Positions 2,311 to 17,702 of a stretch of DNA of 64,000 nt are shown in pieces (within the stretch, counting starts at the first letter, position 1; each line of letters begins with the position of its first letter). Under the pieces are notes generated by a model. The model ran no database searches. It was not told where the DNA came from and saw only the letters and a list, made by a program, of their open reading frames with translations. Source of the DNA: a virus. Taxonomy: Duplodnaviria > Caudoviricetes. The stretch is from IMG/VR virus record IMGVR_UViG_3300042291_001013; one strand, given 5' to 3'. The position numbers were made by a program, and so were the translations under genes.

Positions 2311-2339
2311 ATTATAGCACTAATGGAGAATTTGGTCAA
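2311..2339 (-). promoter_or_regulatory. sigma70-type promoter
   Basis: TTGACC-17 bp-TATAAT. Confidence 0.8.
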
Positions 2340-2343
2340 CCGC

Positions 2344-3630: not shown

Positions 3631-3631
3631 G

Positions 3632-4197: not shown

Positions 4198-4210
4198 ACA
4201 GTTATTTAAT

Positions 4211-4251
4211 TGTGTAGAACTTATTATAGCAAGTTCTACACAAAAGGTCAA
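4211..4251 (-). promoter_or_regulatory. sigma70 promoter with its -10 inside a perfect 12-bp inverted repeat
   Basis: TTGACC(4251-4246)-17-TATAAT(4228-4223); TGTGTAGAACTT/AAGTTCTACACA at 4211-4222 and 4231-4242; TAAATA at 4203-4208. Confidence 0.8.
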
Positions 4252-4754: not shown

Positions 4755-4755
4755 T

Positions 4756-5406
4756 TTAATATTTTCCTGATGCTAATACGATTTGACAAATGTGTTCCAA
4801 TCGTTCAATATGTTCAAATGCTCGCCACGGGCTGGTGTCAATAGCAACAACACCGTGTCCTTTGATGCCCACAATGTCATACTCAATATTACCAGCATCG
4901 TCCAACTGCAAGTTCCTGTGGCACTCATCGCCCAGTTCTTGACTAATTGGGGCCACATCACCAACATTAGGTGCCACCCGAGTATAACGACTGAGTTCTG
5001 GAAAGTCGTTAGCAAGACTACTTAACTCAATGCCACGATGCATGGCAGCAACACAGTAGGTAGGATGTAAGTGAACTACCACCCTAACATCTGTACTGTG
5101 CTGACCCATTGCTCGTTGTAGTCCAAAGTGTAAGGGAATCTCTCCACTAGGCTTTAGATTAGTACTGATGTCTGTGTAGAATTCTTCTTCCCAAGATTTA
5201 GATAGGAAAGGTGGAATGGCACTAATCTTGTCAATCAATTTAATTTTCTTGAACTGATCCGGTTGCATTGTTTGCTTGCGAACGCCACTGGGTGTGATAT
5301 AAAAGTGATCACGGTCGTGATGACGAATACTAACATTGCCATCACGACTGGTAATCCAGTTGCGTCTATATGCTTCGACTAATGTGTCGCATATAGTTTC
5401 TAACAT
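4756..5406 (-). CDS. Class II aldolase/adducin-family protein
   Basis: DGNVS, ITPSG, KPSGEIPLH, VVHLHPTY and KGHGV metal-binding motifs. Confidence 0.88.
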   Translation of the reverse strand: MLETICDTLVEAYRRNWITSRDGNVSIRHHDRDHFYITPSGVRKQTMQPDQFKKIKLIDKISAIPPFLSKSWEEEFYTDISTNLKPSGEIPLHFGLQRAMGQHSTDVRVVVHLHPTYCVAAMHRGIELSSLANDFPELSRYTRVAPNVGDVAPISQELGDECHRNLQLDDAGNIEYDIVGIKGHGVVAIDTSPWRAFEHIERLEHICQIVLASGKY

Positions 5407-5963
5407 TACAGAGTCTCGCCACCAACTGTGCGGTTACAAGCACATAGTTCGCCAGTTTGTAACGCATCTAATACACGAAGTGTTTCTTCTGGGCTACGAC
5501 CCACGTTCAAGTTGTTGACAGTAACGTGTTGGATAACGTTGTCTGGGTCAACGATGAATGTAGCACGTAATGCCGCCCCTGCTGGAGCATAGAACACGCC
5601 TAGCTGTGCAATCAAACTCAAGTTGTCGCCAGTTTCTGGATTGTAACGCTGTGTGTCAGCAAACTGGTTGTGTGTGATCTTGATCAAGTCACTGTGGCTC
5701 TTTTGCCATGCTACTTTACAAAACTCATTGTCTGTGCTTCCTGTGAGCAATACTGCATCACGGTCAGCAAAGTCACTTGCTAGTTTGTCATAGGCTACAA
5801 TCTCTGTAGGACAAACGAATGTAAAGTCCTTTGGGTAGTAAACAATTATTTTCCACTTGCCTTCAAATGACTTTTCTGTAATGTCAAAGAAAGCATCTTC
5901 TGGCTGTCCTGGCTTGACACCTGTAACCACAAACGGTTCTAACTTATCACCAACTGTTTTCAT
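5406..5963 (-). CDS. ahpC: Peroxiredoxin AhpC
   Basis: YPKDFTFVCPTE, RATFIVDP, VGRSPEETLR, GELC. Confidence 0.96.
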   Translation of the reverse strand: MKTVGDKLEPFVVTGVKPGQPEDAFFDITEKSFEGKWKIIVYYPKDFTFVCPTEIVAYDKLASDFADRDAVLLTGSTDNEFCKVAWQKSHSDLIKITHNQFADTQRYNPETGDNLSLIAQLGVFYAPAGAALRATFIVDPDNVIQHVTVNNLNVGRSPEETLRVLDALQTGELCACNRTVGGETL

Positions 5964-6010
5964 TTATATCTCCTATTAAAAAATGATCATAGTGTTTCTA
6001 CTATGTGTAT

Positions 6011-6074
6011 ATTGTAATAGTATATAGCAATGAAGTCAAGCAAAAATCAAGTTTTTCCTATTGATTGTTTCTAT
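6011..6074 (-). promoter_or_regulatory. ahpC promoter with candidate OxyR/LysR box
   Basis: TTGACT(6039-6034)-17-TACAAT(6016-6011); ATAG-N7-CAAT (T-N11-A) at 6074-6060. Confidence 0.55.
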
Positions 6075-6092
6075 GCTGGAGTTTAATAAAAT

Positions 6093-6245
6093 TTATGATG
6101 GTATTAGTTTTGGCAAATACGGAACTGCTCTAGGCCCGTAGCGTGTTTGTAGCAGTAAGCGAGCTTCTTGGGCGGTTTGAGCCCCAACTCGATCTTTAAA
6201 TTCCTTGCCGTCTGATGTGCGTATAGTTGCTTCAAAAAGTTTCAT
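6093..6245 (-). CDS. Small hypothetical protein (50 aa, MKLFEATIRT...)
   Basis: TAAATA at 6251-6256 precedes ATG 6245; the longer ORF-track version overlaps tRNAs. Confidence 0.65.
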   Translation of the reverse strand: MKLFEATIRTSDGKEFKDRVGAQTAQEARLLLQTRYGPRAVPYLPKLIPS

Positions 6246-6257
6246 GCAACTATTTAG

Positions 6258-6332
6258 TGGTAGGCCTTGAGAGGATCGAACTCCCACCGCTTGTTTCGAA
6301 GACAAGCATGATATCCATTTCACCAAAGGCCT
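6258..6332 (-). tRNA. tRNA-Arg(TCG)
   Basis: Cloverleaf, encoded CCA; loop CT-TCG-AA, stem CTTGT/ACAAG. Confidence 0.95.
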
Positions 6333-6335
6333 ATG

Positions 6336-6409
6336 TGGTGCTCTCAACAAGAATTGAACTTGTGTTTCATCCTTACCAAGGATGTGTAATGCCATTATAC
6401 TATGAGAGC
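6336..6409 (-). tRNA. tRNA-Thr(GGT)
   Basis: Loop TT-GGT-AA, stem CATCC/GGATG, CCA. Confidence 0.95.
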
Positions 6410-6413
6410 TAAG

Positions 6414-6487
6414 TGGAGCAGGATACCAGAATCGAACTGGTGACTGGACCTTGGCAAGGTTCTATTTTACCCCTAAACTAATCCTGC
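6414..6487 (-). tRNA. tRNA-Gly(GCC)
   Basis: Loop TT-GCC-AA, U73, CCA. Confidence 0.95.
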
Positions 6488-6500
6488 AATTTTTTACTTA

Positions 6501-6974
6501 TTAGGCTGCTCGTAGACTTTTGAATCTATCTGCCGCGTATGATGCCGCAAATGCTTCTGGCTTCACAAACGGGATCACATTGCATGTTCCTTTAATGTAG
6601 CCTACAGCTTGTGAAATCACACAGCTTGATCCGTGCATTTCGTTTGGGTTGATGTCCAAGTGAACTTCAACTTCACGGCCTTCTAGCACATCGGCCAGCT
6701 TCAAATACAATTCGCTAACCTTGTATACTTCTGTCATGAGTCGCATGGCCGGCTTGCTTGGTTTTTGATCGTAAACACGTTCTCGGTGTACTTCGCCAAA
6801 CAGTTTGCAACCGTTGTTGCCGTTGATGTGTACCACAATGGCCAGCACATAGTCAGCATACCAAGCACCGTCAATTTTGATTCGTTCCGAGTCGCAGCCA
6901 AGATAGATTCGAGTTTCGGGTGTTTGGGCCCGGATAAACTCTGCTACTTGATTGATGTCTAGTTTTTTCATCAT
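6501..6974 (-). CDS. RNase H-like protein (DUF458/YkuK-like)
   Basis: IYLGCDS, RLMTEV, EVHLDIN, VKPEAFAASYAAD; start trimmed to MMKKLD (upstream extension overlaps tRNAs). Confidence 0.8.
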   Translation of the reverse strand: MMKKLDINQVAEFIRAQTPETRIYLGCDSERIKIDGAWYADYVLAIVVHINGNNGCKLFGEVHRERVYDQKPSKPAMRLMTEVYKVSELYLKLADVLEGREVEVHLDINPNEMHGSSCVISQAVGYIKGTCNVIPFVKPEAFAASYAADRFKSLRAA

Positions 6975-7014
6975 TGTCTTTCTATTTAACTCGGGAACCG
7001 TTACAGTTTTATTA

Positions 7015-7094
7015 TGGTACCCCTGCTCAGATTCGAACTGAGAACATATACTCCCTTTTGAGGAGAGTGACTTTACCAATTTGTCCACAGGGGC
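7015..7094 (-). tRNA. tRNA-Leu(CAA), short (8-nt) variable region
   Basis: Loop CT-CAA-AA, CCA. Confidence 0.92.
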
Positions 7095-7109
7095 ACAGCG
7101 TTTGAAATT

Positions 7110-7186
7110 TGGTGCCCCAGGGGAGACTCGAACTCCCAAAATTTGGCTTCTAAGACCAACACGTATACCAATTCCGTCACCGGGGC
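7110..7186 (-). tRNA. tRNA-Leu(TAG), no long variable arm
   Basis: Loop CT-TAG-AA, 5-nt variable loop, CCA. Confidence 0.92.
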
Positions 7187-7197
7187 TTAAATACAAT

Positions 7198-7413
7198 ATG
7201 CACGAAAAGGAAAAAATCTATGTTAAAGATCTCTACAGATTGTTCTGTACAGAACTTTACACAACTACCGCAAGTTGGGTAACCGCAAAACACTTTGTGG
7301 CCGACCCTTTGCTGGATCTGAAAAAAGAATTTATTCCTGATGCTACATTGGTACCAGGAGACGGGATCGAACCGCCCACACCTTGTGCTTCAAACAAGTG
7401 CTCTACCAACTGA
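7198..7413 (+). CDS. Possible small protein antisense to the tRNA array (71 aa; 3' end overlaps tRNA-Phe)
   Basis: TAAATA at 7188-7193 then ATG 7198; fills an otherwise empty tRNA spacer. Confidence 0.4.
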   Translation: MHEKEKIYVKDLYRLFCTELYTTTASWVTAKHFVADPLLDLKKEFIPDATLVPGDGIEPPTPCASNKCSTN

Positions 7414-7424
7414 GCTATCCTGGC
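7349..7424 (-). tRNA. tRNA-Phe(GAA)
   Basis: Loop TT-GAA-GC, stem CTTGT/ACAAG, CCA. Confidence 0.93.
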
Positions 7425-7430
7425 AATATT

Positions 7431-7505
7431 TGGTACCTGGTCACGGTTTCGAACCGCGGACCCTCTCCGTGTAAAGGAGACGCTCTACCCCTGAGCTAAC
7501 CAGGC
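7431..7505 (-). tRNA. tRNA-Val(TAC)
   Basis: Loop TT-TAC-AC, CCA. Confidence 0.96.
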
Positions 7506-7514
7506 AAACTATTT

Positions 7515-7606
7515 TGGCGGAAGACGGAGGAGTCGAACCCCATCCCTGTTAAGAGAACCTGGTTTTCAAGGCCAGTCGCGGGACCAACCCCACTGCATCA
7601 TCTTCC
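7515..7606 (-). tRNA. tRNA-Ser(TGA), atypical D-arm
   Basis: Loop CT-TGA-AA, long variable arm, G73, CCA. Confidence 0.88.
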
Positions 7607-7611
7607 ATATA

Positions 7612-7688
7612 TGGTCGGAATGACACGGTTCGAACGTGCGACCACTGCGTCCCAAACGCAGAGCTCTACCAGGCTGAGCTACATTCCG
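7612..7688 (-). tRNA. tRNA-Pro(TGG)
   Basis: Loop TT-TGG-GA, C1-G72, CCA. Confidence 0.96.
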
Positions 7689-7696
7689 AATTAAAC

Positions 7697-7915
7697 TTAC
7701 TTTAACTTGGGATCAATTGACTTATCAACTTCGTGCGGTTCTGCAAACCTAGGAGTTGGCTGATCCCAATACGCTGGAAAGATCTTCCAGCCAAAACTTT
7801 TCCAGTAACGATGAATGATGTTGTTTATCACAACAACCCCAGCCACGATTACAATTACACCTGTCATTGTTAAAACACTGCCGGCTAAAAATACTGCCGC
7901 TTGATCCATATCCAT
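7697..7915 (-). CDS. Small membrane protein (one TM helix)
   Basis: Hydrophobic stretch AAVFLAGSVLTMTGVIVIVAGVVVI. Confidence 0.7.
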   Translation of the reverse strand: MDMDQAAVFLAGSVLTMTGVIVIVAGVVVINNIIHRYWKSFGWKIFPAYWDQPTPRFAEPHEVDKSIDPKLK

Positions 7916-7939
7916 ATTTGTAAATCCTTTGGAGTTGTG

Positions 7940-8557
7940 TTATTTCAGCATCAATTCCACAGGATCAATAATGGGCATGGTTGCCAGCATGATCCTGGGA
8001 TATTTTGCATCAGGCCCCGGCATAACCCTGTGAGGGATATAACTGTTGAAAACAATAGGATGCTCATGCATGTTATACCTCAGCAAACAAGGATACTGAT
8101 CTTGTACAGTGTGATGTAACACAGAAAAATTATACTGTTCTGTGCCTGTGTATGGGTTTGTCATAACCGGGAGCCGATTCATGGCTTCCTTGGGAATATC
8201 ATACCACTCTGTATAAACATCCTCAGTGTTGTAGATTGGAAAGTTTATTTTGAAGTTCATGGGCGGTGCATCGTTGTGCAACACAACCCCATCGGTCATA
8301 CCTTCTGTCAGCAATCCCACTGTGATTTCTTTGATAGGCAGGTTGACTCGAAACATAAATCGCAACAAATTTGGACACACCTTGGCCATTTGTTTGTAAT
8401 CTATCAGATGCCAGAACTTTTTTTCTTGTTTTTCGTTTAGAAAATCAGTGTTATCTACAACCCAGTTCATTATCTCTTCTTTGATTTGATCAAGGTTGTC
8501 ACACTCAAGTTCGTGTATACATTTGAAACGACTTTGGTCTGGGATATAATCAATCAT
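7940..8557 (-). CDS. Hypothetical protein (possible cupin/2OG-oxygenase-like fold)
   Basis: LHND...KINFPI and PHRV...RIML motifs; TAAATA at 8562-8567. Confidence 0.6.
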   Translation of the reverse strand: MIDYIPDQSRFKCIHELECDNLDQIKEEIMNWVVDNTDFLNEKQEKKFWHLIDYKQMAKVCPNLLRFMFRVNLPIKEITVGLLTEGMTDGVVLHNDAPPMNFKINFPIYNTEDVYTEWYDIPKEAMNRLPVMTNPYTGTEQYNFSVLHHTVQDQYPCLLRYNMHEHPIVFNSYIPHRVMPGPDAKYPRIMLATMPIIDPVELMLK

Positions 8558-8582
8558 GATATATTTACTACCTACAATTATT

Positions 8583-8656
8583 TGGAGCAGGGTAGGGGAA
8601 TCGAACCCCTCGCTTTAGCTTGGAAGGCTAAGGTATTACCACTATACGAACCCTGC
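8583..8656 (-). tRNA. tRNA-Gly(TCC)
   Basis: Loop CT-TCC-AA, U73, CCA. Confidence 0.96.
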
Positions 8657-8668
8657 GTTGAATTACTT

Positions 8669-8697
8669 ATTATACAGCATCTTAGCAATACTGTAAA
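8669..8697 (-). promoter_or_regulatory. Internal sigma70-type promoter in the tRNA array
   Basis: TTTACA-17-TATAAT just upstream of tRNA-Gly(TCC). Confidence 0.7.
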
Positions 8698-8704
8698 GCA
8701 ATTT

Positions 8705-8779
8705 TGGTAGCCATGGACAATTTCGAAATGTCGACCTAACGCTTATCAAGCGTTTGCTCTTCCTCTGAGCTACACGGCT
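8705..8779 (-). tRNA. tRNA-Ile(GAT)
   Basis: Loop TT-GAT-AA, CCA. Confidence 0.94.
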
Positions 8780-8788
8780 AAATATTGA

Positions 8789-8962
8789 ATGCACATTGAC
8801 GTCTATCTACAAAAACAGTTGTACTGCACCATTGAACTAAGTCAGCCCGGTTACAATGTGCCTGCTATCTTGGATCAAATCCAAAGTGATCGCGAAGCTG
8901 GCAACTTGACCTGGGTACAGTGGGATCAGCCGCTTGACTTTGAAGTCAAATACTTTGAATAA
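8789..8962 (+). CDS. Small protein antisense to the tRNA array (57 aa, MHIDVYLQKQLYCTIEL...FEVKYFE)
   Basis: TAAATA at 8779-8784 then ATG 8789; ORF exactly fills the Ile-Gln spacer. Confidence 0.6.
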   Translation: MHIDVYLQKQLYCTIELSQPGYNVPAILDQIQSDREAGNLTWVQWDQPLDFEVKYFE

Positions 8963-8964
8963 CT

Positions 8965-9038
8965 TGGCACGGGAACTAGGGCTCGAACCTAGAATGACAG
9001 AGTCAAAGTCTGTAGTGTTACCATTACACTATTCCCGA
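8965..9038 (-). tRNA. tRNA-Gln(TTG)
   Basis: Loop CT-TTG-AC, unpaired U1/U72, G73, CCA. Confidence 0.93.
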
Positions 9039-9046
9039 ACAAAACT

Positions 9047-9121
9047 TGGTGGATGTAAGTAGATTCGAACTACTGACCTGCCGCGTATGAAGCGAATGCA
9101 CTACCGCTGTGCTATACATCC
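9047..9121 (-). tRNA. tRNA-Met(CAT), probably elongator
   Basis: Loop TT-CAT-AC, G1-C72 paired, CCA. Confidence 0.85.
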
Positions 9122-9124
9122 GAT

Positions 9125-9199
9125 TGGGGTATCCAATGAGAATTGAACTCATGATAGCGGAATCACAATCCGCGGTTTTACCACTAAACTATGGACACC
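9125..9199 (-). tRNA. tRNA-His(GTG)
   Basis: Loop TT-GTG-AT, G-1:C73, CCA. Confidence 0.96.
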
Positions 9200-9314
9200 A
9201 TATAGGAGCACTCTCAACAGCAGGCCTAGGAGGCAATCTGGTTGCTGAAACTTTTGCATCTGCAGATACTAGGCTTCTTCTCCCGCGTTGACTTACGCCA
9301 AGAATGCTTTTATA
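9200..9314 (-). ncRNA. Candidate stem-closed ncRNA A (Lys-His spacer)
   Basis: TATAAAAGCATTCT...AGAGTGCTCCTATA terminal stem fills the spacer from Lys CCA to His G-1. Confidence 0.5.
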
Positions 9315-9388
9315 TGGTAGGGGTGTTCGGGAACGATCCGAATTTTACTGGTTAAAAGCCAGTTACTTCACCTTAAAGTTTCACCCCC
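9315..9388 (-). tRNA. tRNA-Lys(TTT), atypical T-loop
   Basis: Loop CT-TTT-AA; T-loop ATCGTTC; CCA. Confidence 0.88.
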
Positions 9389-9417
9389 ATAGGTTTATCA
9401 CTCTTGTCACTAGTCAT
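9373..9417 (-). other. Mini-ORF MTSDKSDKPMGVKL running into the 5' end of tRNA-Lys
   Basis: AAGGAG at 9430-9425, 7 nt before ATG 9417; TAA inside the tRNA. Confidence 0.35.
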
Positions 9418-9439
9418 GACAGATCTCCTTTTAAAAAAT

Positions 9440-9516
9440 TGGTACCACCTGAGAGATTCAAACTCCCGACCCCTAAGTTCGTAGCCTAGTGCTCTGTTCA
9501 GCTGAGCTAAGGTGGT
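9440..9516 (-). tRNA. tRNA-Arg(ACG)
   Basis: Loop CT-ACG-AA, CCA. Confidence 0.94.
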
Positions 9517-9520
9517 GTGT

Positions 9521-9596
9521 TGGTGCCCCTTGTCCGACTCGAACAGACCACCTACTGCTTACAAAACAGTTGCTCTACCGGATGAGCTAAAGGGGC
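9521..9596 (-). tRNA. tRNA-Thr(TGT)
   Basis: Loop TT-TGT-AA, CCA. Confidence 0.95.
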
Positions 9597-9603
9597 AAAT
9601 TGT

Positions 9604-9693
9604 TGGCGGTGCGAAAGAGACTCGAACTCTTAAAGCGGCTTTCACCACTCGACGGATTAGCAATCCGCTCCAATACCATTATGGGACCGCACC
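9604..9693 (-). tRNA. tRNA-Ser(GCT)
   Basis: Loop TT-GCT-AA, long variable arm, G73, CCA. Confidence 0.95.
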
Positions 9694-9700
9694 TCAAATT

Positions 9701-9776
9701 TGGCTCCCCAGCGTGGGATCGAACCACGGACACCTTGATTAACAGTCAAGTGCAACTACCGCTGTGCTACTAGGGA
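9701..9776 (-). tRNA. tRNA-Asn(GTT)
   Basis: Loop CT-GTT-AA, G73, CCA. Confidence 0.96.
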
Positions 9777-9817
9777 ATAATCTACTTAGTAGGCACTCAT
9801 GCCTACTATCAAAAACT

Positions 9818-9894
9818 TGGCGACCCGGGAAGGATTTGAACCTCCGACATTTGGTTTTGGAGACCAACGTTCTGCCAGACTGAACTACCGAGCC
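9818..9894 (-). tRNA. tRNA-Trp(CCA)
   Basis: Loop CT-CCA-AA, G73, CCA. Confidence 0.95.
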
Positions 9895-9899
9895 ATATT

Positions 9900-9974
9900 T
9901 GGTGGAGGATAAGAGAATTGAACTCTTTTGACCTACGTGCAAGGCAGGCATAATACCCAGTATATGAATCCCCC
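9900..9974 (-). tRNA. tRNA-Ala(TGC)
   Basis: Loop CT-TGC-AC, G3:U70, CCA. Confidence 0.95.
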
Positions 9975-10002
9975 AAATTTTCAAACACACTGTTTCCAAT
10001 GT

Positions 10003-10062
10003 GTGTATTAAAGCACTCTAAAATACTTAGGCTGCCTGTTCGTAAAGAATGCTTTAATACGC
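10003..10062 (-). ncRNA. Candidate stem-closed ncRNA B (17-bp hairpin)
   Basis: GCGTATTAAAGCATTCT...AGAGTGCTTTAATACAC; stem core identical to element A. Confidence 0.45.
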
Positions 10063-10156
10063 TGTAATTTTTTATCTCACAAAAGAGACTCTATCCTACA
10101 GGCCGCCCATTTGTAGTTTAGAGTGATACCGGCTCTCGTTGCCATTGCACTAAATG

Positions 10157-10188
10157 AAAAACCCTGGAGTGTTTAGTTCCAGGGTCTT
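10157..10188 (-). terminator. Intrinsic terminator of attenuator 1
   Basis: AAG-ACCCTGGA-actaaacac-TCCAGGGT-TTTT. Confidence 0.85.
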
Positions 10189-10208
10189 GTTGAATTTGTC
10201 AGTTACTT

Positions 10209-10343
10209 TTATGCGTAACCTGCACCTTCAATAGACCCCGACATCCCTAGAATACTATTCACGCGACCAGAGGCGTGTGACCAGGTAAATGTTGCCTGGA
10301 GCATCGCGGGTTTTGTCGACAGTGAACGGAATGTTGTTTTCAT
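10209..10343 (-). CDS. Putative leader peptide 1 (44 aa, MKTTFRSLSTKPAMLQATFTWSHASGRVNSILGMSGSIEGAGYA)
   Basis: Starts 10 nt after a -10 box; carries CGGGGTCTATTGAA complementary to the terminator 5' arm; stop 20 nt before the terminator. Confidence 0.65.
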   Translation of the reverse strand: MKTTFRSLSTKPAMLQATFTWSHASGRVNSILGMSGSIEGAGYA

Positions 10344-10353
10344 CTTAAGTCCT

Positions 10354-10382
10354 ATTGTAGTTTATTTATGATTGTTTGTCAA
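10354..10382 (-). promoter_or_regulatory. sigma70 promoter of leader 1 (TAAATA within spacer)
   Basis: TTGACA-17-TACAAT; TAAATA at 10363-10368. Confidence 0.8.
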
Positions 10383-10398
10383 TCACAAATGGTAAAAT

Positions 10399-10473
10399 TG
10401 GTTGCGGGTGAAGGATTCGAACCTCCGTCTTCTAGGTTATGAGCCTAGTAGTCTACCACTGACGTAACCCGCG
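10399..10473 (-). tRNA. tRNA-fMet(CAT), initiator
   Basis: C1:A72 mismatch, loop CT-CAT-AA; only two of the three G-C pairs in the anticodon stem. Confidence 0.9.
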
Positions 10474-10491
10474 TTAACTTTTATTTATATC

Positions 10492-10567
10492 TGGAGTAGG
10501 TGACAGGACTCGAACCTGCATTTTACGGATTTGCAATCCGGCGCCTAACCATTCGGCACACACCTAC
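10492..10567 (-). tRNA. tRNA-Cys(GCA)
   Basis: Loop TT-GCA-AA, U73, CCA. Confidence 0.95.
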
Positions 10568-10577
10568 ACTAATTGAA

Positions 10578-10790
10578 TTTGCAAGTAGTTGCTCCATCGT
10601 TATAGCAACCATTCACCCGTGTAATAAACTCGAGCGGGACTCGGTACGTCACTTGGGATACTAGTCCAGTTTGTCTCCGTTACAGACACCACCCTTGCGA
10701 GTGGTTGGGAGTTGAACCCATCACCTTCTACTGTTTTGGTCCTTCGAAGAAACCTAGACAGCATGACATTCTCTTGCTGACACTTACAAA
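10578..10790 (-). ncRNA. Candidate structured ncRNA C (about 213 nt, contains T-loop)
   Basis: Closing stem TTTGTAAGT/ACTTGCAAA; GGG-TTCAACT-CCC T-arm; ACCACTC-GCAA-GGGTGGT GNRA hairpin. Confidence 0.55.
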
Positions 10791-10793
10791 ACT

Positions 10794-10868
10794 TGGCGAT
10801 GCATGGGAGAATCGAACTCCCGTCTCCGGATAGACAATCCGGGATAATGACCATTATATGAATGCACC
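10794..10868 (-). tRNA. tRNA-Asp(GTC) copy 1 (U37)
   Basis: Loop TT-GTC-TA, G73, CCA. Confidence 0.92.
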
Positions 10869-10875
10869 TTAAACT

Positions 10876-10950
10876 TGGCGGTCCCAGGGGGTAACGATCC
10901 CCCTCTTCAGCAGTGACAGTGCTGTGTGCGTCCATGAACACCTTGAGACC
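10876..10950 (-). tRNA. tRNA-Asp(GTC) copy 2, atypical T-loop
   Basis: Loop CT-GTC-AC; T-loop ATCGTTA; G73, CCA. Confidence 0.85.
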
Positions 10951-10956
10951 AATTTT

Positions 10957-11101
10957 TATAGTTAAGCACCGAGAATGCCAATTTAGGAGTCCGGTGCTTC
11001 TGTTCCAAAGCCGATGCAGTTATATCAGGATCAGTCGCCGGCCGCTGTGACCCGAATAGTGTAAGCGTCCTTACACGATACCTTATCGGTGCTTAACTAT
11101 A
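10957..11101 (-). ncRNA. Candidate stem-closed ncRNA D (145 nt)
   Basis: Perfect 16-bp terminal inverted repeat TATAGTTAAGCACCGA/TCGGTGCTTAACTATA; internal hairpins GTGTAAG/CTTACAC and GGGTCA/TGATCC. Confidence 0.6.
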
Positions 11102-11103
11102 AA

Positions 11104-11310
11104 AACAAAAATGCTCTGCATCCCCCGGCGGTAATTGTAGTACATCAAGATACGACGCTATCGTACCCATCACACGTACCTTCCACCCGCTTCCCGACAG
11201 GGACCGTTATCGCATTGCTAGCGGCCTTTGGGTTCAAAGACTACCACCCGTAGCTGTCACGCTACTTCTCATCGTGTGGGTCACACTATCCGGAGACACC
11301 CGGAACGTTC
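11104..11310 (-). ncRNA. Candidate structured ncRNA E (about 205 nt, GC-rich)
   Basis: Starts directly after Tyr CCA; closing GTGTCTCC/GGGGATGC; hairpins GTAGC/GCTAC, CTTTG/CAAAG, TACGA/TCGTA; no credible ORF. Confidence 0.55.
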
Positions 11311-11311
11311 T

Positions 11312-11397
11312 TGGTGGAGATGGATGGATTTGAACCACCGCGCTTTTTACAGAACAGATTTACAGTCTGCCGCCTTCAACCACTCGGCCACATCTCC
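11312..11397 (-). tRNA. tRNA-Tyr(GTA)
   Basis: Loop CT-GTA-AA, long variable arm, CCA. Confidence 0.96.
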
Positions 11398-11405
11398 AAA
11401 AAAGG

Positions 11406-11468
11406 GAGAGCTACGGTTGCAGGACCTAGTGCCTCTTGCGAGGGAAGTATCCAGGCGATGTAGCTCTC
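11406..11468 (-). ncRNA. Candidate hairpin RNA F (Glu-Tyr spacer)
   Basis: GAGAGCTAC/GTAGCTCTC closing stem with internal CCTC-GCAA-GAGG GNRA hairpin. Confidence 0.45.
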
Positions 11469-11472
11469 AAAC

Positions 11473-11547
11473 TGGTAGAGCGTAGGAGAGTCGAACTCCT
11501 CTTATGCGGATGAAAACCGCATGTCCTAACCGATAGACGAACGCTCC
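11473..11547 (-). tRNA. tRNA-Glu(TTC)
   Basis: Loop TT-TTC-AT, CCA. Confidence 0.94.
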
Positions 11548-11557
11548 ATAGTTCACT

Positions 11558-11782
11558 ATATGAAAACACATTAGGATGTTTGATAGAAGTAACAGTTTTG
11601 AACCTGCCCTACTGTGTCGTCCACAGATTTGTCTATCAACCACATTACGGGCCAACTAGATCCGGCGCGCTTCGCTCTTTCGAGTCTGCTTTCGTGTAGT
11701 CCAAGTAGAGCCTAGCCGTCACTAGGATTTAGTTCTCTACTTGGGTACCTACCGGAGTTGGTAACCCAATGCGTTTACATAT
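11558..11782 (-). ncRNA. Candidate structured ncRNA G (225 nt, two domains, T-loop)
   Basis: About 17-bp closing stem ATGTAAACGCATTGGG/CCTAATGTGTTTTCAT; CCAAGTAGAG/CTCTACTTGG; CTC-GAAA-GAG; TTGATAGA/TCTATCAA; CAG-GTTCAAAA-CTG. Confidence 0.62.
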
Positions 11783-11881
11783 AGTGCCCAGAACTGAATC
11801 TGGGTACACTATACAAAATTAAATTTTTAACGAACTCCAAAGTAGCTTCGATCAACTGTCTTTGTTTTCTAACTTGTATCT

Positions 11882-11910
11882 AGTATAACATCTTGTGCTA
11901 TTCTGGTCAA
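11882..11910 (-). promoter_or_regulatory. sigma70 promoter heading the tRNA array
   Basis: TTGACC-17-TATACT. Confidence 0.8.
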
Positions 11911-11915
11911 CTTGT

Positions 11916-11953
11916 TTTGTAAAAGCCCCGCCTTGTTGCAGGGTCTTTACAAA
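11916..11953 (-). terminator. Third AAAGACCCTG-type hairpin/terminator
   Basis: TTTGTAAAGACCCTGC-aacaag-GCGGGGCTTTTACAAA. Confidence 0.65.
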
Positions 11954-11983
11954 CTTTGCTGTGTTACTTCCTAACTAGTCTCT

Positions 11984-12012
11984 AGTATAACATGATTCCA
12001 ATTCTTTGCCTA
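11984..12012 (-). promoter_or_regulatory. sigma70-like promoter (duplicate of the 11882 module)
   Basis: TAGGCA-17-TATACT followed by AGAnACnAGTTAG, as at 11882. Confidence 0.55.
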
Positions 12013-12022
12013 ACACATAAAG

Positions 12023-12049
12023 AAAAACCCTGCTCGGTGCAGGGTCTTT
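12023..12049 (-). terminator. Intrinsic terminator of attenuator 2
   Basis: AAAG-ACCCTGC-accga-GCAGGGT-TTTTCTTT. Confidence 0.85.
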
Positions 12050-12069
12050 GTAGATGTAGTACGAAATAC

Positions 12070-12156
12070 TTACACACAAAGACCCCGAGATGGATCATAC
12101 TCACGCTCGCATGTGAATGCCATTGAATTGAGGATGATTGCGAAAGTTTGTTTCAT
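12070..12156 (-). CDS. Putative leader peptide 2 (28 aa, MKQTFAIILNSMAFTCEREYDPSRGLCV), leaderless
   Basis: ATG 6 nt after TATAAT; CGGGGTCTTTGT can form 12 bp with the terminator 5' arm; stop 21 nt before the terminator. Confidence 0.68.
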   Translation of the reverse strand: MKQTFAIILNSMAFTCEREYDPSRGLCV

Positions 12157-12162
12157 AAGTGT

Positions 12163-12191
12163 ATTATATATGACAGCAGACAAAAAGTCTA
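12163..12191 (-). promoter_or_regulatory. sigma70 promoter of leader 2
   Basis: TAGACT-17-TATAAT-6 nt-ATG. Confidence 0.75.
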
Positions 12192-12204
12192 CTGTTTTGG
12201 TAAA

Positions 12205-12540
12205 ATTGGATAGGTTTATTCTGTTACGAGGAAAACCTATCAAAACCCTAGGCAGTGTTTAGGCTGCCAATGCGAACTGTTCGTCGTTTGCGTTTACGTT
12301 TTTTGCTTCTACGACCGGGAAACCCCAACCCTACGGCTTTCACATTGCCGAGCTGTCCACTCTGTTACTCTTTGCCCTGTCGAAACCATGGCAGGCCCAT
12401 TATAAAACATACTCAAACGGGTCTTTTCGCCTATCCCCGTGCCGTGGCTTGCAAGGATAGGGCTGAATATGCTTTATGGTGGACCTGGCGGGAGTCGAAC
12501 CCGCGTCCAGAACACTTTTCTCTTTGCTTCATACAGCAAT
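12205..12540 (-). ncRNA. ssrA: Circularly permuted (two-piece) tmRNA, tag ANDEQFALAA
   Basis: Acceptor piece ...GGACGCGGGTTCGACTCCCGCCAGGTCCACCA (CCA 12479-12477) precedes a 78-nt intervening segment and the coding piece GGGCCTG... (G1=12398, G3:U70); tag ORF 12291-12259. Confidence 0.93.
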
Positions 12541-12553
12541 AACCTATATTATA

Positions 12554-13498
12554 TTAGGCTTTCTGAATTTTGTCAACCAAACCGGCACTGAATGTGTTGG
12601 CAAATTGATCATATACTTTGGCAGTTACCTTGCGAAAAGTTTGCTCATCAGCATCGCTAAATTTAATAACACGAATGCCATCTTGCTCACAACGTGCCTT
12701 GGTAGGCTCAACTTCGGCCACAGCCACAGCACGCTCAAAACGTCCAGCTTCTAATGCCGCATCTTTCATGACCTGTTGCAGGTCTGCAGACAAGCCAGCC
12801 AAGAAGTTCTTGTTCACAATGATGTTAGTCAACAACAAGCGATGGTTGGGTTCCAAGATAGATTCAGCAACTTCGTTTTGTTGGCAAGCATAGATACGTG
12901 GCCATGAGCTTTCGCCGCCATCAATAGCACCATCTCGGATGCCTTCGGCCACACGTTCAACGTCCATCACAACTGGATCAGCGCCCAGGGCAGTCCATGT
13001 AGCGGCTGCAACTGGTGAATTTGACACACGCACTTTAACGCCGGCCATTTCACTTAGACTTGCAACGTCACGATTCATGGGCATGTTCATAAAGCCACCT
13101 GAGTAGGTAAATGCCATGCCTTTGATGTTGCTGTTCTTGGCGTAACCATCCAGCAAACTCTCGCCAATTTCACTTTCAAACACACGTGCCGCGTGATCGT
13201 GATCACGGAACAAGAAAGGCAAATCAAGTGCGTCAAGATCATTGTTGTACTTGCTGAGTACATAAGTGTACATCTGGCTCATTTCAATAGCGCCAGTGTC
13301 CATAACATCCAACAGGTTATGTTTGGTGATTGGTTCACCATGATTGTACTTGCTGGTATACTCGCTTAGAGTCAGCACTTCAATCTCAAACTGTCCTGGT
13401 GCACGGGCTTCTACTACTTCAGTAAATTTTTCAGCGGCACGAATAAAAATGTCAATAGGTTCATGGGCTAATACCCATTTGATGTGGATAGGTTTCAT
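12554..13498 (-). CDS. TRAP-transporter DctP-like solute-binding protein (no signal peptide)
   Basis: ALDLPFLFRD, EMAGVKVRV, LGADPVVM, GAIDGGE motifs. Confidence 0.88.
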   Translation of the reverse strand: MKPIHIKWVLAHEPIDIFIRAAEKFTEVVEARAPGQFEIEVLTLSEYTSKYNHGEPITKHNLLDVMDTGAIEMSQMYTYVLSKYNNDLDALDLPFLFRDHDHAARVFESEIGESLLDGYAKNSNIKGMAFTYSGGFMNMPMNRDVASLSEMAGVKVRVSNSPVAAATWTALGADPVVMDVERVAEGIRDGAIDGGESSWPRIYACQQNEVAESILEPNHRLLLTNIIVNKNFLAGLSADLQQVMKDAALEAGRFERAVAVAEVEPTKARCEQDGIRVIKFSDADEQTFRKVTAKVYDQFANTFSAGLVDKIQKA

Positions 13499-13534
13499 AA
13501 TATTTTTTCCTTGAGTAATAGCTTGCATGTGTAT

Positions 13535-13633
13535 GCTACGGTGGGCGTTCTAGGTATTGTGCTAGTAAAGGGCATTGCCCAAGCGTCCATTATTTCCGAC
13601 GTCAGCCCCTGCTGGCGTTGCTAGAATTATTTA
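13535..13633 (-). promoter_or_regulatory. TAAATA promoter plus candidate structured 5' leader of the DctP gene
   Basis: TAAATA at 13628-13633 then CTAG...CTAG-closed multi-hairpin segment (GCCAGC/GCTGAC, GTC/GAC, GGGCA/TGCCC). Confidence 0.4.
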
Positions 13634-13683
13634 GCTTTTGCAAGCGTCTTGTATAGCATTTTTAAGGCATTAGTGCGCAATTG

Positions 13684-14868
13684 TTAAAATTTAAAATGAT
13701 TGTTGATACCTGAGCTTTCAAAGTCAGCTTCGCCCAGGTAATAAAAGGGTGATAAAAACCCCACAAAGCCAACTGCTTGCCCCATTTCTCTGTTGAAGTA
13801 CTTGCTGTCAATAGTTTTTACTAGATGTGCAAGACCCGCTTGCCATTTGGCATACTGTGCAGTTTCTTTAAAGTTGGTATAAAACCAATGATCCATCTCG
13901 TTGTAAAAACTGTTGGTTGGTTTACTGGTCTGGAATGTTTCTTGATTGTACTGTGGGTAGATTAACGGCTTGATCAAGTGCTCGTATGTTGTTCGATGGG
14001 TGTAGCTGTAGTTTGGCCAACGGCACACATACTGCATGTGTTTGTTGTGCTCTAGCATAAACCAGTTCTTGACCATGTGGCATTGTTTGATAAACATCTC
14101 TGGCAAGTCAGGCGTCCAATAAAAATATTCGTTGGTCATGTTGGTATAATCACCAAAATCACCCATGCTATGATTGGCCATAACATCAATAAAGTAAGCG
14201 TACCACTTTTTGTCCTTGATGCATAGCTTGGGCTTGTCTACCCCGTACAAGATGCAAATGCGTTGACCAGTGTCTGCTAGCTTTTTGTGACCTACATAGC
14301 CTGTAGCTGAGTGCTTGAACGCATGTCCAGGTTGGAAATAATCTTTAGTTTTCATAACCCAAGATTCATCATACACTTGAGTTAACATGTTTTCACTGTA
14401 GTCGTGCATGGTAATTTTTGTGCGAGGTGAAGCAGTGGTCAACCAGTTCAGCACAGGATATGCCGCATAACGTGCTTCGCTTAGAGTGTTCTCAGGTTTG
14501 CAGTTAAACGGATCGTCGCTAACATCTTTCTCACCAGTCTTGGGATATCGAAAAACAACCTCATCAAGGTGTATTCCGTTGTTGATAAAGCTATACAATG
14601 CTGTAGTCGAATCTCCCCCACCAGAAAATTCTAAACGAATGTAATCGTACTTGTCCCGTAATTGTTGCGCACGAATTCGATACAGGTCTAGGATATTGAT
14701 ATTGGGTTCAACTAGCCAATTTTCGGCACCAAATATTTCGTTGCTGAAATTCCATTCGGGAAACTGATTGGTTTCTGTTGCCTTGGTCAGTGCCATGGGC
14801 TTGCTAAAAAACTTTTCAGTTCCTACAGTGTAGTACCCCAACTTGGGGTTTTGTTCAATCTTGATCAT
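13684..14868 (-). CDS. PP-loop (adenine nucleotide alpha-hydrolase-like) protein, paralog 1
   Basis: RAQQLRDKYDYIRLEFSGGGDSTT; EYFYWTPDLP. Confidence 0.7.
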   Translation of the reverse strand: MIKIEQNPKLGYYTVGTEKFFSKPMALTKATETNQFPEWNFSNEIFGAENWLVEPNINILDLYRIRAQQLRDKYDYIRLEFSGGGDSTTALYSFINNGIHLDEVVFRYPKTGEKDVSDDPFNCKPENTLSEARYAAYPVLNWLTTASPRTKITMHDYSENMLTQVYDESWVMKTKDYFQPGHAFKHSATGYVGHKKLADTGQRICILYGVDKPKLCIKDKKWYAYFIDVMANHSMGDFGDYTNMTNEYFYWTPDLPEMFIKQCHMVKNWFMLEHNKHMQYVCRWPNYSYTHRTTYEHLIKPLIYPQYNQETFQTSKPTNSFYNEMDHWFYTNFKETAQYAKWQAGLAHLVKTIDSKYFNREMGQAVGFVGFLSPFYYLGEADFESSGINNHFKF

Positions 14869-16478
14869 TGTGAGGTTCCAAAAAAGTTGTTGTACCAGTT
14901 GTTGGCTGACTGTGCATGCTTGGCTTGTATTTTATTTTTGCTGTTAAAGTAGTCAAAAAAGTTTATGGCCAGTTGTTCAGTTTCGTTGTCAATGTCTATT
15001 TGCCAGGGCAGATCTATGCCATAGTACATGGCCATGTTTGCTAAAGGACCTTGATACCAAAAGTGCTGAAGTTTATCATTATAGTGTCGTCTTGATTCAG
15101 ACACAACAGTGTCCTGCAGCCATTCCTTGATGCAAAGCTCTTGACCAACAGAATTCATCAATTGCCAGTATGGAGTATCGTTTTTTGGCGCTAGATACAT
15201 ACCAACTTGAATACGTTTCAGCACGTCATTATTGATGTTGTTAACAAACTGATTGTACGAATCTTTCCAGTCAAACGTTCGATCATGATCCTGCTTGATG
15301 TAATCAACCAATTGATTAATAAAAGCCAACTGAGTTGAAAATCCATTGGCGTCATATACGTCAGTAAACCCGCTGGAGATACCCAGCGTCACACAATTAG
15401 CCACAAATGTTTGTTCAAAGAATCCGGCCTGCCAAGATATTTTTCTTTTGATTGCACCCTTCATCCACGGGAACCGCTGATCAAACTCGTCAATCAACTG
15501 CTGTTCATCAGTAGTAAAGTTTTTGTTGTACACATAACCATTGCCACTGCGCCCTGGTTGTGGCAGACCAAACACCCATCCTTGACTCATGGCATAATGT
15601 CTGGACACACAATCTGATGGATTTTCTAGATCATGACGATTTGGTCCCTGCCCAACTATTGCGGCATTGTTAATAGTATCTTCAACCGGACGCCAACGAA
15701 ACGGTACAAACTGCGAAAACAATCTCTTGAACCCGGTACAGTCAACAAACAGATCTGCATGCACCTGTGAATCGTCTTCACCTACTAGGTGAGTAACTCT
15801 GGTCCCATCAAACACCACATTCTTAATTCGCAGAGCTTGAACTTTGACTCCGCAAGGAATGCCCACGCTTTCGTGAATTACGTCTTTGACATAATCAGCA
15901 TTGAAATGAAAACTTGAAACCAATCGCTTCTGTGGCAGATGCTGTTTGTTCATGATTGTTTTGTAATAGCTATACCAATAGCTTTCGCTTAGGTCGCCAG
16001 CCCTGTTTTCATTTTTACGCAGTCCTTTGTTGTATAGGTGTAACCATACGTCCCACAATGTGTATTTGTCATCTTCGGCACCCGATGCTGGACCCAGAGG
16101 TTTTGTTCTATGCCCATAGGTGTCTGTTATAGATTGTGTAATTATCTTGGCACTAGGATTCCACTGGAATCCAGAGACCATGGGTGTCTCGGTGCCATCA
16201 AATCCAAAAAATGCCACACCATACTTGTAGCTAGAATTTGATTTTTTCATCCAGTCATAAGAGCTCTCGTCATCAATGCCAAACAGTTTGCGCATAACAT
16301 CACGACAGTTAAACGCAATGCTTTCTCCGACACCGATGTAAGGAGTGTTGGGATCATGTACAATAGTCACATCAGTTCCTGGACAATTTCTTTTTATGGC
16401 GGCGGCTGCAAAATATCCAGCGGCTCCGGCGCCCACAATCACAACTTTGAGTGGCTTGGCTTCAGCATTTTTTATCAT
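14865..16478 (-). CDS. Tryptophan-halogenase-family flavoprotein
   Basis: GAGAAG, IGVGES, DLFVDCTGF, GWVFGLP...GNGYVY, LGISSGF. Confidence 0.85.
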   Translation of the reverse strand: MIKNAEAKPLKVVIVGAGAAGYFAAAAIKRNCPGTDVTIVHDPNTPYIGVGESIAFNCRDVMRKLFGIDDESSYDWMKKSNSSYKYGVAFFGFDGTETPMVSGFQWNPSAKIITQSITDTYGHRTKPLGPASGAEDDKYTLWDVWLHLYNKGLRKNENRAGDLSESYWYSYYKTIMNKQHLPQKRLVSSFHFNADYVKDVIHESVGIPCGVKVQALRIKNVVFDGTRVTHLVGEDDSQVHADLFVDCTGFKRLFSQFVPFRWRPVEDTINNAAIVGQGPNRHDLENPSDCVSRHYAMSQGWVFGLPQPGRSGNGYVYNKNFTTDEQQLIDEFDQRFPWMKGAIKRKISWQAGFFEQTFVANCVTLGISSGFTDVYDANGFSTQLAFINQLVDYIKQDHDRTFDWKDSYNQFVNNINNDVLKRIQVGMYLAPKNDTPYWQLMNSVGQELCIKEWLQDTVVSESRRHYNDKLQHFWYQGPLANMAMYYGIDLPWQIDIDNETEQLAINFFDYFNSKNKIQAKHAQSANNWYNNFFGTSQ

Positions 16479-17701
16479 GTTATCCTATAAGTGTTTTTTA
16501 AATTAACGTAACAGCCGTTGAGTGACTTGGTACCGGCAATTTCGTCCCAGTGCTTGGGTGCAATGGTTTTTACATGATTCCTAAGCCACGCAAACCCTCG
16601 TGCATAATAATTTTGTCCTAGATCAGGAGACAAACTATTCCATAACCATTCGTCACGTTGTGGCCAACTGGTGCATAATGGTTTTTTAGCCACAACAGCA
16701 TCGGGCATCCAATCTTGGTAAATTAACCTGTGCATTCCGCCCATGGTCAAGGTATAAGGTTTGTTGTTGTGGGTAAAATACACCGCTGCCAATCCTGCTG
16801 TGTCGTTAAACGAAAGGTGCAGAGATCTTGAAATTTTGCCTTCAACTACATGTTTACCATCACAGTGGCCTGGGTCAAATTTTTCACAGTAGTTTTTGAT
16901 CACATGCGCTTGTTTGCAAGGCAACATTGGAAAATCAGCACCCCAATAAAAGTACTCGTCGTATTCGCCAGGTCGATTCAGCATCTGAGCATAGCCACTA
17001 ACGCCGTGATCAAGTCCATCTCTAAAATTAACAAACCAATCTGTGCCTTGCTGTGTTATCATGGGCTTTTCAATTCCCCAAATAAAACACAGGCGTTTAC
17101 CTTGATTGATGATATTGGCGTAGTCGGGTATGTCCTGTCTAAATTGATGTCTTGACAAAGTAACTGGAGAGAAGTAATTGTTGACTCTGTAAAAGTGATC
17201 CCAGCGAGTGTTGTAATCCTTTAACAGTTTGATTTCCATGTCAGTAATATCAACCAGTCGATGTTTAGTGTTGCGATACACAGGATTGTTAGCCAGCAAC
17301 TGCTGGGTGATTGGTATACTAGTCTGTGCTAGCTCTTCATGAAAAAAAGTGGTCTTGTCATCGTGTGCGGCTTTCATGTTGGTGTACTGCGCAATCTCAT
17401 CTATAAAGATATTGTTGCGTACAAAGGTCTGCAGGATATTGTGACTGTCAGCACCGCCACTAAACCACAGCACAATGTAATCATACTGATCTCTAATTTG
17501 CCTAGCACGTTGCTCGTACCAAAAATCTAAACTGCCCGGAGGTTCCTGGGACCAGTCAACGGATTGATAGGTGTCTTGATTGTAGTGCCATTCTACTGGC
17601 AGTTTTGATTGTGCGCTGTGCTCAATTGCTTCTAGTTTGCTGTAGGTTTTACGTGGACCCACAGTGTAGAATCCATATCGATCGCGATTGTCTAGAGACA
17701 T
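16475..17701 (-). CDS. PP-loop protein, paralog 2
   Basis: RARQIRDQYDYIVLWFSGGADSHN; EYFYWGAD; start trimmed to MSLDNRD. Confidence 0.7.
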   Translation of the reverse strand: MSLDNRDRYGFYTVGPRKTYSKLEAIEHSAQSKLPVEWHYNQDTYQSVDWSQEPPGSLDFWYEQRARQIRDQYDYIVLWFSGGADSHNILQTFVRNNIFIDEIAQYTNMKAAHDDKTTFFHEELAQTSIPITQQLLANNPVYRNTKHRLVDITDMEIKLLKDYNTRWDHFYRVNNYFSPVTLSRHQFRQDIPDYANIINQGKRLCFIWGIEKPMITQQGTDWFVNFRDGLDHGVSGYAQMLNRPGEYDEYFYWGADFPMLPCKQAHVIKNYCEKFDPGHCDGKHVVEGKISRSLHLSFNDTAGLAAVYFTHNNKPYTLTMGGMHRLIYQDWMPDAVVAKKPLCTSWPQRDEWLWNSLSPDLGQNYYARGFAWLRNHVKTIAPKHWDEIAGTKSLNGCYVNLKNTYRIT

Positions 17702-17702
17702 A

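Follow-up and report, generated by a model that had tools for sequence, protein, structure and literature searches.

The transfer RNA (tRNA) array of the phage represented by IMG/VR record IMGVR_UViG_3300042291_001013 holds several undescribed conserved structured RNAs, an arrangement known since phage T4 RNAs C and D, and the helices that close these RNAs are structural processing features, not a universal tag. We analyzed a 64-kb window of the 100-kb contig and number all positions along it; an estimated completeness of 29% for the contig puts the phage genome at roughly 340 kb. The DNA runs with this sequence are lake-water metagenomes. The window carries 26 tRNA genes between 6258 and 11547, every one on the minus strand, and we read all elements as minus-strand RNA, the same strand as the tRNAs. 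On balance we lean modestly toward a reading that takes the stems as terminal helices belonging to at least five structured passenger RNAs (element A, an RNA containing element B, elements D and G, and the intervening segment of a transfer-messenger RNA (tmRNA) gene) that ride in tRNA transcription units and are freed by host nucleases as closed-end RNAs.

Conserved structured RNAs fill the spacers of the tRNA array

The first-pass annotation had placed five stems around elements A, B, D and G and around the tmRNA intervening segment, and had ascribed to them a common AAAGCA/UGCUUU motif. Spacer reading and folding recovered all five stems at their places on the minus strand, within the following set of features.

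9199..9314, minus strand: element A, a 116-nt structured RNA with closing helix UAUAAAAGCAUUCUUGGC / GAGAGUGCUCCUAUAU
9983..10152, minus strand: B-containing multi-hairpin RNA of ~170 nt, between a terminator (10157-10188) and tRNA-Ala (9974)
10003..10062, minus strand: element B, a hairpin with a 15-bp stem GUAUUAAAGCAUUCU / AGAGUGCUUUAAUAC and one U-G
10060-10046 and 10019-10005, minus strand: arms of B, from spacer reading and folding
10568..10793, minus strand: element C, 226 nt, a conserved RNA without the motif whose closing helix is short (5-6 bp)
10953..11105, minus strand: element D, ~150 nt, closed by a 20-23 bp helix around a strongly conserved interior
11105-11083 and 10975-10953, minus strand: arms of D, 23 nt, 96% complementary
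11100..11311, minus strand: element E, a conserved ~210-nt RNA between tRNA-Tyr and D, without the motif
11398..11472, minus strand: element F, 75 nt with a 9-bp closing stem GAGAGCUAC / GUAGCUCUC
11554..11786, minus strand: element G, a ~233-nt multi-helix RNA with a 21-22 bp closing helix CACUAUAUGUAAACGCAUUGGG / CCUAAUGUGUUUUCAUAUAGUG
11786-11765 and 11575-11554, minus strand: arms of G, 22 nt
12171..12590, minus strand: permuted two-piece tmRNA gene found by ARAGORN (RF04321, 123 bits; RF01850, 112 bits), tag ANDEQFALAA
12399..12476, minus strand: tmRNA intervening segment, 78 nt, within the two-piece tmRNA gene
12476-12463 and 12416-12403, minus strand: arms of the intervening segment, forming a 13-14 bp stem

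Comparison of these elements with related phages used 36 viral loci at 55-90% identity, retrieved through a neighboring 394-amino-acid open reading frame (ORF) and commonly containing tRNA arrays and permuted tmRNAs, together with several hundred further loci from IMG/VR pattern scans. Each of elements A to G retrieved its own homologues alone from the related loci, with zero cross-matches, so the cargo sequences are unrelated, as the first-pass annotation had held, and each represents a conserved RNA family. Searches of the spacers against Rfam at the gathering score and at E cut-offs of 1 and 10 returned only tRNA and tmRNA, and in blastn of positions 9000-12800 against a set of 50,697 phage records every match fell in a tRNA or tmRNA gene and none in a spacer. 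A literature search yielded nuclease precedents only and no description of these RNAs.

The closing helices sit at consistent positions relative to tRNA ends. Element A takes up the whole spacer, with the CCA of tRNA-Lys (9315) on one side and tRNA-His starting on the other (9198); its helix contains U-G wobbles and two A-C mismatches in this genome, and its outer pairs can reach into ACCA/UGGU. Element D ends 2-7 nt short of tRNA-Asp (10950), G ends 6 nt short of tRNA-Glu (11547), and the stem of F is followed by a U run directly 5′ of tRNA-Tyr. The segment at 12399-12476 lies between the CCA of the tmRNA acceptor piece and the 5′ end of the coding piece, which identifies it as a tmRNA intervening segment, and its helix runs from the first base past CCA to a point 4 nt short of the G that begins the coding piece. 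Across the set, the distance from CCA to the helix is 0-1 nt in A and the intervening segment, and the distance from the helix to the next tRNA or tmRNA 5′ end is 0-9 nt in these two and in D and G; helices begin at or within the upstream CCA in A, the intervening segment and many D and G relatives. The geometry by which tRNA processing could free RNAs with paired ends, as the first-pass annotation proposed, is thus present at CCA and RNase P sites for A and the intervening segment, and at the 3′ side for D and G.

Pairing is maintained in the closing helices of D, G and the intervening segment

A competing explanation, which we consider improbable, is that a common sequence-specific handle (AAAGCA/UGCUUU plus a U-G wobble) is recognized by one protein or nuclease and marks all cargo for release or binding. 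We gathered homologues by element interiors, so that their arms were not pre-selected. The D interior pattern AGGTATCGTG..CACTATKCGGG retrieved 63 distinct copies, in which the closing helix is always 17-23 bp long, mostly 19-22, and near-perfect but different in sequence, with variants including UAUAGUCAAGCAUCGAUA / UCUCGGUGCUUGACUAUA, CCAUUUGUUUAGUGUUAUC / GAUAACACUAAACAAAUGG, CCAUAUAAAAGUGUUAUC / GAUAGCACUUUUAUAUGG, AAAAGGUCACAGCAGAUGC / its complement and several others. Among 47 aligned sequences the 20-bp D helix is 96.7% paired, with changes on both sides in 18 of 20 pairs, and its covariation score of 0.721 compares with 0.257 for shuffled data (0 of 500 shuffles reach it) and at most 0.16 when the partners are slid. 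Near-fixed pairs are limited to column 12 (U-A) and to the 'AAG' positions (A-U and G-C). A common handle would be consistent with the retention of these 'AAG' pairs in 45-46 of 47 D helices and with the AAGCAU/GUGCUU sequence of close D relatives, which have the same wobble; against it, interior-anchored D homologues replace AAGCAUCGAU with AAGUGUUAUC, UAGUGUUAUC, AAAUGUUAUC or CACAGCAGAUG, fully compensated.

The arms of G and of the intervening segment vary likewise. G helices in relatives are 20-24 bp long with different sequences, their outer halves varying while pairing is kept, and in several relatives the GUACCA of the upstream tRNA (ACCA) is paired within the helix to UGGUAC (UGGU). 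In 19 relatives the intervening segment measures 61-382 nt and is closed by a stem of 6-14 bp that always starts 0-1 nt past CCA and ends 4-5 nt before the coding piece, followed by UGAU or UAAU and then GGGCC; its arms change freely (AAACAUAUUAAU, AAGCACAUUGG, AAAGGAUUUUU, UAAGGAAGUUUGA and others). The proposal that a shared stem closes the tmRNA intervening segment holds for position and helix, and its common sequence is not supported by the relatives.

AAGCA is not retained in the arms of D, G or the intervening segment among relatives, and since these arms vary with pairing kept, AAAGCA/UGCUUU is not a family-wide handle. In the reading we favor, the likeness seen in these three elements in this genome reflects A/U-rich composition and chance, and selection acts on pairing, helix length and A/U richness, and not on a common sequence. 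G-U wobbles fall on the tRNA-sense strand, and the helices are selected as sense-strand RNA structure.

The first-pass annotation had itself named chance AT-rich complementarity as an outcome that would undo its proposal, and we regard the corresponding reading, in which the stem likeness is accidental and the helices are just neutral spacer folding, as very unlikely. Spacer ends are A/U-rich across the array, the motif statistic is borderline (below), and A by itself folds no better than dinucleotide shuffles (z-score −1.7), yet A is kept in relatives. The same shuffles give z-scores of −5.2 for B, −5.1 for D, −5.1 for G and −4.2 for the intervening segment. An inverted-repeat scan of the whole window with arms within 400 nt ranked D and G first and third by length and the most complementary among the long repeats, and A and B are also on the list. 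Above all, the 20-24 bp helices of D and G are kept by strong covariation across divergent phages, which largely refutes the chance reading, and the recurrence of exact B arms described below argues in the same direction.

We assign a similarly slight probability to the arms being terminal inverted repeats of mobile DNA elements, akin to miniature inverted-repeat transposable elements, that brought cargo into the tRNA array: inverted repeats do flank unrelated cargo, and both the tRNA order and the tRNA 3′ of the B-containing RNA differ among relatives, but each element matches a single place in the 100-kb contig and, likewise, in every related locus searched, the arms covary and are not conserved between copies, the G-U wobbles make an imperfect DNA repeat and a paired sense RNA, and no flanking direct repeats are seen in the sequence.

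Elements A and B share a sequence-constrained stem

Direct comparison of A and B reveals a likeness of a different order. Their 5′ arms are identical at 14 of 15 bases (UAUAAAAGCAUUCUU vs UAUUAAAGCAUUCUU), their 3′ arms have AGAGUGC in common, both contain the U-G wobble in AUUCU/AGAGU, and the two copies of the 9-mer AAGCATTCT in the 100-kb contig are the 5′ arms of A and B. AAGCA occurs in 4 of 7 arms, with P ~0.003 if arms are independent and P 0.05-0.06 with A set aside as a relative of B; counting A and B once thus leaves the motif statistic borderline, a further point against a handle common to all cargo. The A-B likeness is true common descent or common constraint and is confined to these two elements. 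The shared closing-stem signature of the first-pass annotation accordingly survives for A and B, in 14 of 15 bases and the same U-G, and fails for D, G and the intervening segment, whose arms vary in relatives.

Element B is one hairpin of the ~170-nt RNA (10152..9983) and not a free-standing spacer element. The B-containing RNA lies 3′ of the intrinsic terminator (10188-10157) of a small-ORF leader and 5′ of the first tRNA of the block, and in relatives it stands 24-33 nt upstream of at least 15 different tRNA species. In order, it comprises a hairpin with loop AACGAGR, a hairpin with loop CACUNUAAAC, the sequence GGGCGGC, the 6-bp helix P1, which encloses a small hairpin, element B, and a hairpin ACACAUU..AGUGUGU. 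Directly 5′ of this RNA, positions 10157-10398 on the minus strand contain a TTGACA-17-TACAAT promoter, a 44-codon ORF and the intrinsic terminator. We rejected CACTNTAAAC and TTGACA upstream of B as a promoter, as covariation places them in RNA hairpins.

Exact B arms separated by 20-50 nt are present in 113 IMG/VR stretches, representing 64 distinct sequences, of which a rough count gives about 56 true B hairpins. The apical part of B in relatives is 23-48 nt long and forms 0-2 covarying hairpins, often with GNRA-type tetraloops. In a 35-sequence alignment the AACGAGR-loop hairpin, P1 and the small hairpin covary freely, while the B stem is 99.8% paired and 7 of its 15 pairs never vary, including GUA/UAC and AAGCA/UGCUU. 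The neighboring ACACAUU..AGUGUGU hairpin is almost invariant too, and the invariance of the B stem extends to ~10 sequences not found through the stem pattern. This contrast between an invariant GUAU..AAGCA / UGCUU..AUAC and the covarying helices alongside it (P1, hp1 and hp-a) is a point in favor of a common handle. Covariation in related phages, which the first-pass annotation had called for, is found in the helices of D, G and the intervening segment, and the B stem is almost invariant. In more distant relatives the positional homologues of B read GUAUUCUAAAACAUA, which counts against a common handle. Interior-anchored homologues of A show slight variation in the arms, with AAGCA or AAGUA on one side and UGCUC, UGCCU or UGCUU on the other, and two distant variants carry different arms.

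Eight exact B-pattern matches of the form 'ccgggcgacgcaAAAGCATTCTcccc...' belong to an unrelated family: loci L145, L229, L172, L202, L189, L144, L209 and L179 contain an unrelated hairpin ccgggcgacgcaAAAGCATTCT-C(4-7)-tctctcaaggtctgtcAGAGTGCTTTtgc with a variable poly-C run, which matches the B pattern by chance. We scanned IMG/VR for the A/B handle closing 51-110 nt of other cargo and obtained 152 distinct new hits, a chance-level result in which 4 have at least 3 extra outward pairs against ~8 expected by chance. No further cargo families with the A/B handle thus emerge from IMG/VR, and a sequence-constrained handle exists only for B and its relative A.

The B stem, common to A, is a reasonable candidate for a specific binding site, judged from its conservation. 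A tentative and rather doubtful extension is that the A/B stem (GUAUURAAGCAUUCU / AGAGUGCUUYAAUAC, with a fixed U-G) and the ACACAUU..AGUGUGU hairpin together could form a sequence-specific docking site for a phage or host protein or nuclease; with comparable hesitation, such a site might tolerate arbitrary apical insertions, of 23-48 nt in B and ~90 nt in A. If so, it would be a modular RNA handle of a large freshwater jumbo-phage lineage, placed at the heads of tRNA operons. We rejected a boxA or nut-type reading of the B 3′ arm UGCUUUAAUACA: the boxA consensus UGCUCUUUAACAA is single-stranded, and the arm is paired and lacks UC.

The D interior is strongly conserved

Beyond its closing helix, D and 47 relatives retain invariant single-stranded stretches (AGGUAUCGUG, CACUAUKCGGG, UAACUGC and CUAAAUUGGCA) between covarying hairpins. 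This pattern, which has no Rfam match, suggests a possible ligand- or protein-binding, or catalytic, RNA. The Ro-binding strand of human Y1 RNA reads CUUGACUA, and we dropped a reading of the D 3′ arm as its counterpart, given that the arm covaries and that Ro60 is lacking.

RNA contigs suggest that C, E and G accumulate

We examined expression in four lake metatranscriptome runs, available as assembled contigs only, counting pieces at ≥90% identity and not taking regions without cover as evidence of absence. Summed contig depth reached 600-17000 over C (10573-10814), 250-5200 over E (11178-11419) and, in one run, up to 5000 over G, compared with 100-1300 over the tmRNA coding piece and only tens over A, B and D. 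The C, E and G contigs are identical or nearly so to the sequence analyzed here, including a 96-nt contig identical to 10658-10753 at depth 1061, and flanking sequence has depths in the tens. At about 1000-17000, the depths reached by C, E and G exceed that of the phage's own tmRNA and hint that these elements accumulate as stable RNAs; contig depth is a poor measure, and we take accumulation as a hint only. In one RNA contig (depth 16), CUUUUA links the 3′ part of G (to 11569) with its 5′ part (from 11776). This junction falls within the closing helix, is the form expected of a circular or permuted G, and appears in no DNA locus examined; as a single contig, it may reflect such a molecule.

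A model for release by host tRNA processing

The helices, their covariation and their placement against tRNA ends are observed directly in the window and its relatives, and they frame a model in which passenger RNAs would be excised by the enzymes that mature the surrounding tRNAs; which nuclease cuts, and where, we infer. Each helix pairs the passenger's own 5′ and 3′ flanks, so that folding would be independent of the neighboring tRNAs, and would set both junctions beside sites cut by the host, the upstream CCA and the downstream RNase P site of a tRNA or the tmRNA coding piece. On the 3′ side, RNase P would cut at +1 of the downstream tRNA; on the 5′ side, an endonuclease would cut at or just past CCA. 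The released RNA would have its two ends base-paired and hence protected. The 19-24 bp near-perfect helices of D, G and A would most likely be cut within by RNase III, an enzyme whose staggered cuts leave 2-nt 3′ overhangs, like the stems flanking rRNA precursors. RNase P and RNase E would then deal with the shorter stems, those of B, C, F and the intervening segment.

Several features fit the assignment of RNase III. The helices arise from the flanks of the RNA to be released, as in known RNase III stems, and about two turns (≥20 bp) of mostly uninterrupted double strand are reached by G (20-24 bp), by D (17-23 bp, mostly 19-22) and roughly by A, but not by B or the intervening segment. At two turns, the helices of these three elements sometimes bury the CCA itself, out of reach of RNase E, and they are therefore most likely RNase III sites. 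Neither this phage nor four relatives, one of them 97% complete, encode RNase III, RtcB or Ro60, so processing would fall to host enzymes. The same lack of Ro60/TROVE, RtcB and RNase III in the phage and four relatives rules out a phage-encoded Y-RNA or ligase system, and a Y RNA or YrlA acting with Ro60 finds no TROVE match in these five genomes and no Rfam match up to E=10.

A number of results weigh against release by host processing as the full account. The B stem, at 15 bp, and the intervening-segment stems, at 6-14 bp, are short for RNase III. The element with the best helix, D, has low RNA-contig depth, and the most abundant passenger, C, has a closing helix of just 5-6 bp, so that a long helix is not required for accumulation. 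The B stem and the A arms are more conserved in sequence than pairing alone needs, which points to sequence-specific recognition that release by tRNA processing does not cover. The RNA runs consist of assembled contigs, which cannot show RNA ends, so the cleavage sites are predicted ones, and the nucleases would be those of the host.

Treating the helices as processing features means treating each RNA as a separate gene and seeking its ends at the helices. The freshwater phage lineage, with genomes of ~300-350 kb, has at least seven such RNA families, none in Rfam and several with strong covariation support; specific partners are best sought for the A/B stem and the D interior.

Neighboring genes and additional features

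Element C contains a T-arm-like hairpin GGGUUCRAYUCCC that is kept in 24 relatives, and a T-arm-like hairpin GGUUCGAUUCC occurs in the intervening segments of L124, L188, L107 and L168. Intervening segments of 90-380 nt in many relatives begin with UAAGGA followed by an ATG and a small ORF (L001, L033, L089, L109, L103, L084, L079, L118, L004, L077, L106 and L012). We know of no description of a Shine-Dalgarno sequence with an ORF, or of a T-arm-like hairpin, in tmRNA intervening segments.

Between the tmRNA gene and G, positions 11800-12167 (minus strand) contain two near-repeat units, each a terminator-like hairpin AAAGACCCUGC..GGGUUUUU followed by a promoter; the promoters are sigma-70-like (TTGACC-17-TATACT and TTAGGC-17-TATACT). 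At 7519-7606 (minus strand) is a tRNA-like gene missed by ARAGORN, with a long variable arm, a 3′ end GCCA and an anticodon loop CUUGAAA (anticodon UGA); it is probably a tRNA-Ser and scores 36.9 bits with the Rfam tRNA-Sec model, under its cut-off. Protein genes lie inside the tRNA array at 6501-7013 and 7697-8557 (minus strand): one encodes an RNase H-like protein (PF04308, E 4e-16), and two further ORFs lack Pfam matches. Adjoining the tmRNA gene, 12554-18725 (minus strand) holds a run of solute-binding proteins of the DctP and TctC types, together with a flavoenzyme resembling tryptophan halogenase and two ORFs that lack Pfam matches, an unusual phage cargo.

Comparison with known systems

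The intervening segment conforms to permuted tmRNA (RF04321, RF01850) in being closed by a stem and bounded by the acceptor-piece CCA on one side and the coding-piece RNase P site on the other, and differs in that the segments of relatives span 61-382 nt and often contain a Shine-Dalgarno sequence and small ORF, or a T-arm-like hairpin. In bacterial rrn operons, RNase III cuts the stems flanking 16S and 23S rRNA (PMC6582327), which are likewise long helices of 5′ and 3′ flanks in a polycistronic stable-RNA transcript with tRNAs; the RNAs here are small (60-235 nt), their release is a matter of the model above, and the helices of B and the intervening segment are under two turns. E. coli uses RNase P or RNase E to remove, by endonucleolytic cleavage, hairpins that directly follow CCA in the valU and lysT operons (PMC4176162) and in proK, proL and proM (PMC5291269). 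These too are stem-loops 0-7 nt past CCA that are removed in one step; they are terminators at transcript ends, whereas the helices here lie within the transcript, around conserved cargo, with another tRNA after them.

A close arrangement is that of phage T4, whose tRNA gene cluster encodes the stable RNAs C and D (species 1 and 2), co-transcribed with tRNAs and freed by host processing. These are likewise non-tRNA structured RNAs among phage tRNA genes, and the precedent cited by the first-pass annotation is sound as to the kind of arrangement, with no detectable sequence similarity by blastn against 50,697 phage records, so that the T4 RNAs are set apart on sequence. The phage described here, a member of a freshwater jumbo-phage lineage, carries seven or more elements of this kind, and some of them are closed by helices of 20-24 bp.

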